A stretch of 25,018 bases of DNA, taken from a virus. This document shows positions 7,997-15,980 of the stretch, piece after piece. Where the stretch lies: the UHGV virus genome UHGV-1360762, one strand, 5' to 3'. The notes beneath the pieces were generated by a model. That model did no database searches. It had not been told where the DNA came from and saw only the letters and a list, made by a program, of their open reading frames with translations. Positions within the stretch are counted from its first letter, which is position 1. The number at the start of each line of letters is the position of its first letter. Both the position numbers and the translations under genes were made by a program.

Positions 7997-8129
7997 TTTT
8001 TGGAACTCCTGGCTGATTAAGTACGTCGATGAGTCGTTTCCATCCGTCACGTAATTTACGGGTGATTCGTTCAAGTAAAGATTCGGAAGGGCAGCCAGCA
8101 ACAGGCCACCCTGCAATGGCATATTGCAT
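7989..8129 (-). CDS. cIII: cIII (FtsH inhibitor stabilising cII), lambda-like
   Basis: MQYAIAGWPVAGCPSESLLERITRKLRDGWKRLIDVLNQPGVPKNG is near-identical to recalled lambda cIII. Confidence 0.88.
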   Translation of the reverse strand: MQYAIAGWPVAGCPSESLLERITRKLRDGWKRLIDVLNQPGVPKNG

Positions 8130-8190
8130 GGTGTACTCCTTATTTATACATAACGAAAAACGCCTCGAGTGAAGCGTTATTGGTATGCAT

Positions 8191-10879: not shown

Positions 10880-11152
10880 ATGCGAAACAAAGGCTTTAAT
10901 CCACCTGATACACACAAAGAAGCTAAGCGTTTGCGCTTCCTTCGTTCCATTGATGAAAGAACTCAAATCTCTTTTGTGAAAGTTGCCAGAACTGAGCTTC
11001 TGAAGGCTGAGGCGAGGGCGTTGCTCCCGTCTCTACCAAAAGAGGAGGGATATACGTTCATTCCAAACGCATTTCTGGAAAAGCTGCTCAAAGAAGACAT
11101 ATCCGTAGGTCAGTTTAACGATGTTCTTAAGGTCTTTCGTCAAGGCAGGTAG
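10880..11152 (+). CDS. Hypothetical protein (90 aa) between cII and the replication initiator
   Basis: ATG at 10880 preceded by GAGGT; in the frame of the long track ORF 10571..11152. No recognised family; lambda has no gene at this position. Confidence 0.5.
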   Translation: MRNKGFNPPDTHKEAKRLRFLRSIDERTQISFVKVARTELLKAEARALLPSLPKEEGYTFIPNAFLEKLLKEDISVGQFNDVLKVFRQGR

Positions 11153-11154
11153 TT

Positions 11155-12102
11155 ATGAGCAATACAGCAAAAATCTACGATTTCAGCGCCGCACACGAGC
11201 GCAGGAGCAACAGGATGGAGAACCAGAAAACTGGTTACATTCCGTTGTACCGGAGCATTCTGAAACAGTCATGGGCGAAAGATGTTTATCTTCGCACCAT
11301 GTGGGAAAACCTTCTCCTGAATGCCGCCAGAAAGCCATACAAAGCGAATTTCAAAGGTAATGAATGGCATCTGCAACCCGGTCAACTGGTTGTGACAGCA
11401 GCTGATTTAGGTCTTCAGTTATGCGACAGACATGGCAAGCCAGCAAGCCGTGATCAGGTTGAGCGGATGCTTCAGGTTTTTGTGAAAGAGGGGATGATCT
11501 CCATTGATGGAGAGAAGCAAAAAGGTCGTGTGATAACAATCACAAATTACCATGAATATGCTCAAAAAATGGACAATTTACCCGCACATGAAGCCGCACA
11601 AACAACCGCACATGATGACGCACATGGCGAAGCCAGTAATGGCGCGGCTTTCAGCGTACATGCCACACATGAAAGCGCACATGAAGCCGCACAAACAACC
11701 GCACATCATGAACAAGAAGGTATTAACAAGAATATAAATAATACCCCCCTACCCCCCAATGGGGGCGGCGATGGGCAGGTTAAACCTGAACGTCGCAAGG
11801 CAGAACGAATCGACTACGAATCCTTCCTGAGCGCCTACAACACCGAAGTCGGTGACAGACTTCCACACGCTGTTGCGGTCAACGAGAAACGCAAACGCCG
11901 CCTGAAGAAAATCATCCCGCAACTGAAAACGCCAAACGTGGACGGTTTCAGGGCGTATGTCAGGGCGTTTGTGCATCAGGCCAAGCCGTTTTACTTCGGA
12001 GACAACGACACGGGCTGGACGGCCGATTTTGATTACCTGCTGAGGGAAGATTCGTTAACGGGAGTTCGGGAAGGGAAGTTTGCAGACAGGGGGATTGCAT
12101 GA
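11155..12102 (+). CDS. O: Replication initiator, O-like (origin-binding)
   Basis: Position after cII; iteron repeats and AT-rich tract inside the coding sequence as in lambda O/ori; followed by a helicase gene with ATGA overlap. Confidence 0.8.
11580..11745. repeat. ori: Replication origin: iterons within the O-like gene plus adjacent AT-rich tract
   Basis: 29-bp direct repeat CACATGAAGCCGCACAAACAACCGCACAT at 11585-11613 and 11678-11706, further GCACATG-type motifs between, then AACAAGAAGGTATTAACAAGAATATAAATAATA. Confidence 0.7.
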
Positions 12103-13475
12103 AACAGGATATCGAAGCGAGCGTTATCGGTGGCCTGCTGATTGGTGGATTAACACCAACTGCCAGTGACGTTCTGGCAACGCTGGAGCCGGAAGCGTTT
12201 TCAATTCCGCTCTACCGGAAAGCCTTCGAGGTTATCCGGAAGCAGGCGAGAAACAGAAACCTAATCGACGCGCTGATGGTTGCCGAGGCGTGCGGAGAGG
12301 AGCATTTCACGTCAATCCTGATGACCAGCAAAAACTGCCCGAGTGCCGCAAACCTGAAGGGATATGCCGGAATGGTCGCGGATAACTATCACCGCCGTCT
12401 GGTGCTGGAAATCATGGATGAAATGCGTGAACCAATTCAGAGCGGAACCATCGATACATCGAGTCAGGCGATGGACGAGCTTGTAAAGCATCTCTCAGCC
12501 ATCAGAAAGCCCCGTGACGAGGTAAAACCTGTACGGTTAGGGGAAATCATTACTGACTACACTGACACGCTTGACAGGCGTCTGAGGAACGGAGAAGAGT
12601 CAGATACCCTGAAGACCGGAATCGAAGAACTTGATGCCATCACCGGAGGGATGAACGCGGAAGACCTGGTGATAATCGCTGCTCGTCCTGGTATGGGGAA
12701 AACCGAACTGGCGCTGAAGATTGCCGAAGGCGTTGCAAGCCGCGTTATTCCTGGTTCTGACGTCCGACGCGGGGTATTGATTTTCTCAATGGAAATGAGC
12801 GCATTGCAGATTGCAGAGCGAAGCATTGCCAACGCCGGGAGGATGTCGGTTAGCGTACTGCGAAATCCTGCATCGATGGATGACGAAGGCTGGGCGCGTG
12901 TTGCTAACGGCATGAGTCAGCTTGCAGATTTGGATGTATGGGTAGTCGATGCCTCGCGGTTATCGGTCGAAGAAATACGCTCAATCGCAGAACGACACAA
13001 ACAGGAAAATCCAAACCTGTCACTCATCATGGCGGATTATCTTGGCCTGATTGAGAAGCCGAAAGCAGACCGCAACGACCTCGCAATTGCTCACATCTCA
13101 GGAAGCCTGAAGGCGATGGCGAAAGACCTGAAAACACCGGTTATTTCCCTGAGTCAGCTTTCACGCGATGTTGAGAAGCGACCAAACAAACGCCCGACAA
13201 ACGCAGATTTGCGTGATTCAGGAAGCATTGAACAGGACGCAGACTCAATCATCATGCTCTATCGGGAAGCTGTATATGACGAGAACAGTAGCGCCGCGCC
13301 ATTTGCTGAAATCATTGTGACGAAAAACCGTTTTGGCTCACTTGGTACGGTTTACCAGCGGTTCTGCAACGGACACTTTGTTGCATGTGACCAGGATGAA
13401 GCCAGACAGATTTGCACAGCATCAAATGCACCTGCTGCGCGTGGCAGACGATATGCACAAGGGGCTGACGTATGA
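12099..13475 (+). CDS. Replicative DNA helicase, DnaB-like (P22 gp12-type)
   Basis: 458-aa protein with Walker [10 protein letters not shown] and DnaB-like C-terminal domain; takes the place of lambda P. Confidence 0.88.
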
Positions 13476-13500
13476 CCATCTACATCACTGAGCTAATAAC

Positions 13501-13531
13501 AGGCCTGCTGGTAATCGCAGGCCTTTTTATT
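13501..13531 (+). terminator. tR2-like rho-independent terminator after the helicase gene
   Basis: AGGCCTGC TGGTAATC GCAGGCCT stem-loop followed by TTTTTATTT. Confidence 0.75.
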
Positions 13532-13547
13532 TGGGGGAGGGTAAATC

Positions 13548-13754
13548 GTGGTTGAATTTATGCTCGTCGCACTCAAATTCGTTGGCGTTGGATGGATTCT
13601 TCTGACGTTTTTTATTGTTCTGCATAGCTACATTCGTCTTGTGAATGACGGTAAAGAACCATGGTATACGTTGTTTGGTGCTGCATTTGTCTGGGTGATT
13701 ATCGGTGTTATGCCTGTCGCTGTAGCCAAAATGGCGTGGCGTTTTTTTAGTTGA
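13548..13754 (+). CDS. Small predicted membrane protein (68 aa, two hydrophobic helices)
   Basis: GTG start 7 nt after GGGGGAGGG; two hydrophobic segments (LVALKFVGVGWILLTFFIVL and LFGAAFVWVIIGVMPVAVA). Confidence 0.55.
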   Translation: MVEFMLVALKFVGVGWILLTFFIVLHSYIRLVNDGKEPWYTLFGAAFVWVIIGVMPVAVAKMAWRFFS

Positions 13755-13755
13755 G

Positions 13756-14208
13756 GTGACAATGAAGCAAATATACATGCTTCGCAACGAAGCAATCAGA
13801 AACAACGCCATAGACGCAATACTCTCACTTCCGATCGACGACAAGTCACCTCACGAAGTCCACGTTAAAGAACCCAAGCGGAGCAATCCTCAAAACCGCC
13901 TTATGTGGGCGTTATTGCAGGACGTATCGCGTCAGGTGCTTTGGCATGGAAAGAGACTTGCGCCGGAGGACTGGAAAGATCTGTTCACTGCCCTGTGGCT
14001 TAAGACCAAAAAACTGGAGCAACGAAGTGCGCCTGGTATCGACGGTGGCGTTGTCATGCTTGGCGTGCGTACCAGCAAAATGCGAAAGGCCAACATGACT
14101 GAGCTTATCGAAATCATGTTCTGGTTCGGCTCAGAGCGCAACGTGCGGTGGAGTGATGACTCCCGGCGAGAGTATGAATGGTCACAACGAAAAGGGGAGG
14201 CTGCATGA
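13756..14208 (+). CDS. ninB: NinB-like recombination protein
   Basis: Collinear similarity to recalled lambda NinB (…QNR.LWA.L.DVSRQV.WHG…, SDD(E)SR.EYEW..R.GE.AA C-terminus). Confidence 0.8.
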   Translation: MTMKQIYMLRNEAIRNNAIDAILSLPIDDKSPHEVHVKEPKRSNPQNRLMWALLQDVSRQVLWHGKRLAPEDWKDLFTALWLKTKKLEQRSAPGIDGGVVMLGVRTSKMRKANMTELIEIMFWFGSERNVRWSDDSRREYEWSQRKGEAA

Positions 14209-14732
14209 CTATCAAATCAAATACGCCAGCACACGACAAGGACTGCTGGCAAACGCCGCTTTGGCTTTTTGATGCACTGGATATTGAGTTTGGATTCTGG
14301 CTGGATTCGGCAGCGAGCGACAAAAATGCTCTATGTGCTCACTGGCTAACTGAGGCCGACGACGCGCTCAATTCTGAGTGGGTAAGCCACGGTGCAATCT
14401 GGAATAACCCACCGTACAGCAATATCAGGCCGTGGGTGGAAAAAGCCGCTGAGCAGTGCATGCAACAGCGACAGACGGTAGTGATGCTTGTGCCAGAGGA
14501 TATGTCAGTAGGATGGTTCAGCAAGGCTCTGGAGAGCGTTGACGAAGTTCGCATCATCACTGATGGACGGATTAATTTTATCGAACCATCGACAGGGCTG
14601 GAGAAGAAGGGGAACAGCAAAGGTTCCATGCTGCTGATTTGGCGACCGTTCATCAGTCCTCGACGGATGTTTACTACCGTATCCAAAGCGGCATTGATGG
14701 CGATCGGGCAGGGCGTAAGGAGGGCGGCATGA
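14205..14732 (+). CDS. Phage DNA N6-adenine methyltransferase (Dam-like)
   Basis: Catalytic motif IV NPPY (WNNPPYSN); ATG at 14205 preceded by AAAGGGGAGG and overlapping the ninB stop; occupies the lambda ninC slot. Confidence 0.75.
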
Positions 14733-15309: not shown

Positions 15310-15478
15310 TCCATCCCAATCCCTTCAATACCAGAAAGAAAGCGTCGAGCGGGCTTTAACGTGCGCTAACTGCGGTCAGAAGCTGCATGTGCTGGAAGTT
15401 CACGTGTGTGAGCACTGCTGTGCAGAACTGATGAGCGATCCGAATAGCTCAATGTACGAGGAAGAAGACGATGAGTGA
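15302..15478 (+). CDS. ninF: NinF
   Basis: [51 protein letters not shown]... matches recalled lambda NinF. Confidence 0.85.
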   Translation: MLSPSQSLQYQKESVERALTCANCGQKLHVLEVHVCEHCCAELMSDPNSSMYEEEDDE

Positions 15479-15980
15479 TGTTAAAGAAAAAGATATCCCC
15501 GGCTTTGAGGGTATATATAAAGTAACTGAAAATGGAGACATCATTTCATGCCGTAAATCAAAAAAATTATCTCATGGCATTAAACCAGGAGGATATGCAT
15601 TTGTCGGTCTGTATCCAGGTGGCGGGAAAAGACCATCATATAAAATGGTTCACAGAATTGTTGCAGAAGTATTTATTGATAACCCAGATGGCAAACCGGA
15701 AGTTAATCACAAGGATGGAAATAAACTTAATAATAAAGTTGAAAATCTTGAGTGGGTAACGCGAACAGAAAATGCGAAACATGGATTTGATTCCGGATTG
15801 CTTGTTCATGGGTTTAATCATCACTTCTGCAAACTAACGCCAGAACAAGTGAAATCAATATATAAATCAAAAGGCAAATACAGAGATATAGCCAAAGAAT
15901 TTGGTGTTTGTGCGCAGACAGTGTGCAACATAAAAAACAAATCAGCGTACCGACGTTTTTTGGAGGGGATTGATGTTTAG
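15471..15980 (+). CDS. HNH homing endonuclease (NUMOD4-like N-terminus plus HNH_3)
   Basis: GFEGIYKVTENGDIIS (NUMOD4-like) and VHRIVAEVFIDNPDGKPEVNHKDGNKLNNKVENLEWVTRTENAKH (HNH_3-like); coding sequence visibly more AT-rich than neighbours. Confidence 0.8.
   Translation: MSDVKEKDIPGFEGIYKVTENGDIISCRKSKKLSHGIKPGGYAFVGLYPGGGKRPSYKMVHRIVAEVFIDNPDGKPEVNHKDGNKLNNKVENLEWVTRTENAKHGFDSGLLVHGFNHHFCKLTPEQVKSIYKSKGKYRDIAKEFGVCAQTVCNIKNKSAYRRFLEGIDV

Follow-up and report, generated by a model that had tools for sequence, protein, structure and literature searches.

Phages encode several small membrane proteins with two transmembrane helices, including the class II holins and pinholins, such as S68 of phage 21, and T4 Imm, an early protein. 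These proteins have 63-83 aa, and they resemble the protein described here in architecture only, with no sequence or profile similarity between them. The GhoT toxin has the same small two-helix architecture as the class II holins. In lambda, the Ren protein is linked to escape from Rex exclusion. Within the nin region, deletions are viable (PMC5630979), and a lysogen of P22 lacking ninA-ninH has been constructed and put to use (PMC11016777). The closest described genes are copies of the very gene reported here, namely HK022 gp58 (HK022_58), Stx2-86 gp69 or Lahn2 ORF69, SPN9CC_0027, and an ORF of HK620. All of them share the 68-aa length and the place after tR2 with the present copy, with no substantial difference, and a literature search found no paper on this ORF.

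The window, a stretch of 25,018 nucleotides from the UHGV virus genome UHGV-1360762, belongs to a lambdoid phage of the P22/HK620 kind and covers its early-right region. Overall it is most closely related to CUS-3, vB_EcoP-611R6, and HK620, of which CUS-3 is the closest, and the gene order runs from an O-type initiator through a DnaB-type helicase, the 68-aa ORF, and NinB to a Dam methylase. Comparative analysis shows that the 68-codon frame is a genuine gene, conserved but optional, of lambda-like phages of enteric bacteria. It is an ordinary copy of an already catalogued family, phrog_1165, which the databases call a "hypothetical protein". The gene and its surroundings comprise the following features.

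11155-12102: O-type initiator, first in the gene order.
12099-13475: DnaB-type helicase, directly before NinA and tR2.
13472..13555, + strand: NinA mini-ORF, 27 aa (phrog_5907, E 1.3e-18; annotations of HK620, SPN9CC, and HK630).
13501..13532, + strand: tR2 intrinsic terminator, a GC-rich hairpin at 13501-13524 followed by TTTTTATTT (terminator scan and RNA fold).
13533..13541, + strand: Shine-Dalgarno run GGGGGAGGG, with 6 nt between the run and the GTG of the 68-aa ORF.
13548..13754, + strand: 68-aa ORF (phrog_1165), GTG start and TGA stop, encoding a predicted two-helix inner-membrane hairpin protein.
13762..14208, + strand: ninB, an Orf-type recombination mediator (Pfam NinB, E 1.9e-48).

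The original prediction of a 68-aa frame with a GTG start at these + strand coordinates, preceded by a strong Shine-Dalgarno sequence, is borne out on both counts. The GGAGG core of the run ends 7 nt before the GTG, and the same element serves ninB in lambda. A start-codon census of 79 loci anchored on the tR2 block returned a 68-aa product in all 79, with the start position conserved as GTG in 78 and as ATG in one, Salmonella phage SPN9CC. Of the Shine-Dalgarno elements before the ORF, 73 read GGGGGAGAG and 5 read GGGGGAGGG. An internal ATG at codon 5 was rejected as the start, being 19 nt from the Shine-Dalgarno element; its Met is not conserved and is replaced by Ile in the other main allele (allele B), which points to the GTG as the predicted start of the ORF. 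An antisense frame of 105 aa (13527-13844, - strand) was likewise rejected as a real gene: it matches neither Pfam nor PHROG, it is interrupted by a stop in Stx2-86, and its substitution phase is wrong, the pattern fitting the + frame.

That the gene opens the nin region as the first one after tR2 agrees with the terminator scan and with the match to HK620 and lambda. Base for base, the tR2 block of the window is the same as the tR2 annotated in HK620 and as the ren-ninB spacer of lambda. In both lambda and P22, ninB begins exactly where the 68-aa ORF begins in the window, so that in lambda the ninB ATG occupies the position of the GTG. On its downstream side, the GAGG Shine-Dalgarno sequence of ninB (13753-13756) shares bases with the stop codon that ends the 68-aa ORF, and position 1 of the Pfam NinB model corresponds to the Met encoded at 13762.

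The 68-aa ORF was also considered as a form of NinA and rejected, since ninA in P22, HK620, SPN9CC, and HK630 is a separate frame of 26-27 aa (phrog_5907); P22 NinA has 26 aa (PMC4837284). NinA is the neighbour of the 68-aa ORF and differs from it in frame and PHROG, and it spans the tR2 hairpin. It starts at an ATG that overlaps the stop of the helicase (ATGA), and it ends, with a TGA, 3 nt into the 68-aa ORF. Because the two frames overlap by a few bases, homologues of the 68-aa protein are sometimes reported under the name "ninA", while in HK620 the homologue (12384-12581) was left unannotated. As a separate observation, the coding sequence of NinA is the tR2 hairpin itself and links the helicase stop to the start of the 68-aa ORF, and this NinA/tR2 block of ~76 nt is DNA-identical in lambda, HK620, SPN9CC, and HK630 despite unrelated flanking genes. 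A ribosome on NinA would be expected to melt the terminator hairpin, and translation coupled to the replication gene might thereby modulate the efficiency of tR2. Salmonella prophage proteins P0012, P0013, and P0018 show a further variation, with called products of 93-94 aa. In P0012, the one examined, the 68-aa ORF forms an in-frame fusion with the NinA mini-ORF, and translation from the NinA ATG would give a three-helix protein, but these longer products may merely reflect the longest-ORF choice of gene callers.

A different picture emerges for the claim that the gene stands in the place of lambda ren. In lambda, ren (40280-40570) precedes tR2 and encodes a protein of 96 aa, whereas the 68-aa protein is encoded after tR2. 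BLASTP gives no alignment between the 68-aa protein and lambda Ren at E <= 100, and of 92 loci, 13 carry both genes, one on either side of tR2. What they have in common is small size, non-essentiality, and a place between the replication genes and ninB. Position, similarity, and co-occurrence thus all speak against equivalence, and the link to exclusion that had been drawn through ren falls away.

Several lines of evidence support a real, selected gene. An HMM search matches residues 1-68 of the protein to positions 1-68 of the 68-position phrog_1165 profile (E 4.6e-37; function unknown), and three distant members (P0071, P0078, and P0079) match the same family. Architecture and position agree with this assignment: members have ~63-68 aa and two helices, and lie in the early-right operon after the replication genes. 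In a collection of 5.8 billion proteins, the family forms 61 clusters, nearly all of exactly 68 aa and all named "hypothetical protein"; the 27 clusters that were aligned contain zero gaps. The cluster closest to the window copy shows 94% identity, or about 4 different residues.

Comparison of alleles reveals how this length has been kept. There are two deep alleles, A (the window, HK620, and mEp213) and B (HK022, HK630, Stx2-86, and mEpX1), which differ over codons 1-48 with pS ~0.74 and pN ~0.40. Overall dN/dS is ~0.3 (range 0.2-0.6), and differences at codon positions 1, 2, and 3 number ~24, 15, and 33, a third-position bias. Codons 49-68 (13692-13751) are nearly DNA-identical between A and B (pS 0.04-0.26), and this segment is a mosaic junction, a recombination linker within the coding sequence, with the tR2 block as its counterpart at the opposite end. 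Compared with the Salmonella allele, codons 49-68 give pS 0.57 and pN 0.14, and they are therefore also under purifying selection. Since recombination largely accounts for the near-identity of A and B in this segment, some of the conservation seen in helix 2 does not stem from selection; the conservation argument for that helix is drawn from the Salmonella allele and the distant members, not from A versus B. In base composition, the 68-aa ORF has a GC content of 43% (GC3 41%), against 51.5-52% (GC3 54-58%) for the helicase, ninB, and dam, a difference that reflects hydrophobic codons in part and possibly a different origin.

Database searches show that the gene is common. With tblastn, homologues with 50-94% identity appear in 107 records covering E. 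coli, Salmonella, and Stx-converting phages, and 257 IMG/VR contigs also carry homologues. Among 5,426 complete E. coli genomes, 539 (~10%) contain a matching sequence, which covers at least 80% of the gene in 228. A profile search of 1.84 billion representative proteins gave 25 matches, all of them small proteins of the 68-aa family, with no link to an annotated family; these matches include relatives of 63-66 aa with 30-41% identity, and the two with a named source come from Pantoea and Serratia. The phrog_1165-type family is thus small and limited to lambdoid phages and prophages of Enterobacterales. A scan of genome contigs returned 3 loci, and two MAGs among them, labelled Cellvibrionaceae and Bacillota, carry E. 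coli-phage-like sequence, one with a DnaC-type gene and ren, the other with a DnaB-type helicase. These two contigs are probably mis-binned enterobacterial prophage sequence.

A census of 92 loci describes the surroundings of the gene across the family. In 83 loci, an exact copy of the 39-nt tR2 core is found no more than 150 nt before the 68-aa ORF. Of the replication genes upstream, 63 are DnaB-type helicases, 8 are lambda P, and 7 are of the DnaC type. In only 15 loci does ninB follow within 40 nt; elsewhere, 0.3-1.2 kb of small ORFs lie between the two. The Serratia- and Pantoea-type relatives, which are 30-40% identical, have the gene right after O and a DnaC-like gene, and in the distant Serratia-type loci it lies in the cI-cro-cII-O operon, without the tR2 block. 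CUS-3, which shares its helicase with the window, has the slot filled by an unrelated ORF of 70 aa, Cys-rich and soluble (phrog_6308), at 10917-11129. Taken together, the census, CUS-3, and the Serratia-type contexts show that the gene is a cassette that phages may carry or lack, placed at the very head of the nin region. Small accessory genes are exchanged in the slot between tR2/NinA and ninB, and the gene is dispensable: lambda and P22 lack it and have ninB directly after tR2, and the slot of CUS-3 holds something unrelated.

The encoded protein is dominated by two hydrophobic helices, as first proposed from the translation, and both the Kyte-Doolittle peaks and an AlphaFold2 hairpin agree with this. 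With Kyte-Doolittle windows of 19 residues, hydropathy peaks at 2.36 over residues 6-25 and at 2.38 over residues 42-60; the turn around residues 33-38 is polar, and the whole protein has a GRAVY of 1.23. AlphaFold2, run with the family alignment, places the helices at residues 2-33 and 38-67 with a mean pLDDT of 90.8. The protein has no long charged tail and no soluble domain. That the frame is a gene and that its product forms a hairpin is near-certain. The coding sequence divides as follows.

13578..13634, + strand: predicted transmembrane helix 1, codons 11-29, after K10, with W16 and F21 conserved (hydropathy and AlphaFold2).
13635..13670, + strand: short turn, codons 30-41 (R-L-V-N-D-G-K-E-P), net charge ~0, predicted periplasmic (AlphaFold2 and conservation).
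13671..13751, + strand: predicted transmembrane helix 2 and basic C-terminal tail (KMAWRFFS), codons 42-68.

Conservation is strongest in codons 42-68, with W49, G53, P56, V57, K61, and W64, and the turn keeps V32, G35, D/E37, and P38. Residues W16, W49, G53, P56, and W64 are invariant or nearly so in all relatives, with G53, P56, and W64 unchanged in every member of the family, and K61 is usually kept. In helix 2, conservation follows a period of ~100 degrees, which was equalled by 57 of 2000 shuffles, and the conserved residues therefore mark one face of the helix; helix 1 shows no significant conservation periodicity, since 574 of 2000 shuffles did as well. The face formed by W49, G53, P56, K61, and W64 suggests specific binding within the membrane, and it could instead serve packing within the hairpin alone. 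By the well-established positive-inside rule, the distribution of charge favours a topology with both termini inside: the two tails together hold ~3 K/R and almost no acidic residues, and the turn holds 2 K/R and 2 D/E. An N-in/C-in orientation with a short periplasmic turn is thus most likely, on the basis of a small charge difference (3 versus 2 K/R).

Searches against characterised families returned little. The 68-aa protein has no match in NCBIfam, no match to a holin family in Pfam or PHROG, and no Pfam or NCBIfam match to small membrane toxins such as Hok and GhoT; no PADLOC defence model matched at E <= 1. Among PDB sequences, a profile search gave no meaningful match, Foldseek searches of PDB and BFVD yielded generic hairpins only, with nothing at E <= 0.001, and Rfam has no RNA family in the ORF region. 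The T4SS pilin family (PF18895) was rejected as a candidate: it scores 16.2 bits (E 0.011) against a gathering cut-off of 26.6, it matches just 3 of 18 family members at E <= 1, and the match reflects the compositional likeness of hydrophobic hairpins.

The gene is best explained as a dispensable accessory gene in the early-right (pR) operon of lambdoid phages, where it is the first cistron after tR2. A promoter scan of positions 13000-14300, which recognises the sigma-70 consensus only, found 0 promoter-like sites. Together with the position behind tR2, this argues for expression only from N-antiterminated pR transcripts. Transcription would then start at pR and reach the gene only when N-modified RNA polymerase reads through tR2, and the product would be made after infection or induction and not in the repressed lysogen. 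For this reason, the gene is better regarded as a putative delayed-early lytic gene than as a lysogenic-conversion gene. Translation would begin at the GTG behind its Shine-Dalgarno element and may couple to, or re-initiate from, the NinA mini-ORF.

After synthesis, the product would insert into the inner membrane, its two termini facing the cytoplasm. The invariant residues along the helix 2 face (W49-G53-P56-K61/A60-W64), with part of helix 1 (W16 and F21), would make the contact, and this face, combined with the lack of a long charged tail and of a soluble domain, makes a specific helix-helix contact the most likely mode of action. The partner in the membrane may be a host inner-membrane protein or further copies of the hairpin itself. 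Such a contact would adjust some function of the membrane in the course of lytic development, as opposed to simply making the membrane permeable. A toxin, a superinfection-exclusion factor, and a modulator of host membrane proteins had been offered as options, and the helix-face conservation fits the "modulator or binder" option best. We give this overall picture, a lytic-phase membrane hairpin acting by specific helix-helix contact, about an even chance; the part that makes the protein a specific binder is held much more weakly than the part that makes it a gene and a hairpin.

Sequence matching the gene is present in about a tenth of the complete E. coli genomes, and homologues occur in many Stx-converting phages, yet it is unannotated in references such as HK620. 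Small phage membrane proteins are under-studied, and a phenotype would be useful. The comparison also yields corrections for annotation: the gene is equivalent to neither NinA nor Ren, and its start is best placed at the GTG.

A narrower version of the lytic picture gives the hairpin a specific inner-membrane target, either as an Imm-like block to DNA entry by competing phages during the latent period or as a neutraliser of an abortive-infection channel of the RexB type in the membrane. This refinement is tentative and on the whole unlikely. Were the RexB-type option true, the hairpin would be a second, membrane-level partner to ren. With either target, the family would represent new phage membrane modulators acting through the W49-G53-P56-W64 face.

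Superinfection exclusion or immunity is a related proposal, in which the hairpin would block DNA entry by later phages, either in the lysogen, as with P22 SieA and HK97 gp15, or during the lytic cycle, as with T4 Imm. A small predicted inner-membrane protein from a temperate phage would be in keeping with such a role, and early lytic expression would suit an Imm-like protein. The lysogenic form fits poorly with the location of the gene, behind tR2 in a repressed pR operon with no promoter-like site of its own, where prophage expression is not expected and a prophage-expressed exclusion role is correspondingly disfavoured. Moreover, the carriers differ in virion and entry route, ranging from P22-like podoviruses to lambda- and HK022-like siphoviruses and Stx phages, and no PADLOC model or Pfam exclusion family was matched. 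Exclusion is a distinctly unlikely function.

It is improbable that the frame has little or no function, either serving as a translated spacer that keeps translation coupled from the replication genes, across tR2, to ninB, or hitch-hiking as mosaic filler. The tight coupling of nin genes by ATGA overlaps (PMC8022706) lends this idea some support, as do the two DNA-identical recombination linkers that flank the ORF (the tR2 block and codons 49-68), its GC content below that of its neighbours, and its dispensability in lambda and P22. Selection on the protein tells against it, with dN/dS at ~0.3 and the exact 68-aa length kept across saturated synonymous divergence. In addition, relatives with 30-40% identity retain W16, W49, G53, P56, and W64 next to other neighbours and with no tR2 block, and lambda couples ninB directly without the 68-aa ORF.

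Quite improbable is a membrane-damaging toxin or lysis-timing factor of the holin, pinholin, or GhoT-like kind, in which oligomers of the hairpin would depolarise the inner membrane. The high GRAVY, the size, and the two-helix architecture do recall class II holins and GhoT, and for the rest the comparison is unfavourable. Holins carry a charged C-terminal domain and belong to the lysis cassette, whereas the 68-aa protein has a C-tail of just 8 residues with 2 K/R and no charged hydrophilic domain, and its gene lies in the early operon, in the nin region; relatives such as CUS-3 have a separate S-R-Rz cassette. No holin or toxin family was matched, a depolarising protein made early would harm the phage, and the invariant G/P/W pattern suggests specificity.

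Counter-defence, with the hairpin neutralising an abortive-infection effector embedded in the membrane, for instance a RexB-like channel, is very improbable: the accessory region is rich in counter-defence or recombination functions, a Dam methylase lies next door, and the gene adjoins ren in phages that have ren, but the case is purely circumstantial, with no homology to a known anti-defence protein and ren present in just the 13 of 92 loci noted above.

Two other elements of the window complete the description of this region. On the - strand at 8084-8142, Rfam identifies Lambda_thermo, the cIII thermoregulator element, with 84 bits and E 2.3e-19. Within the nin region, a 169-aa ORF at 15471-15980 (+ strand) carries HNH_3 and NUMOD4 domains and is homing-endonuclease-like; it stands just after an ORF with a NinF domain.
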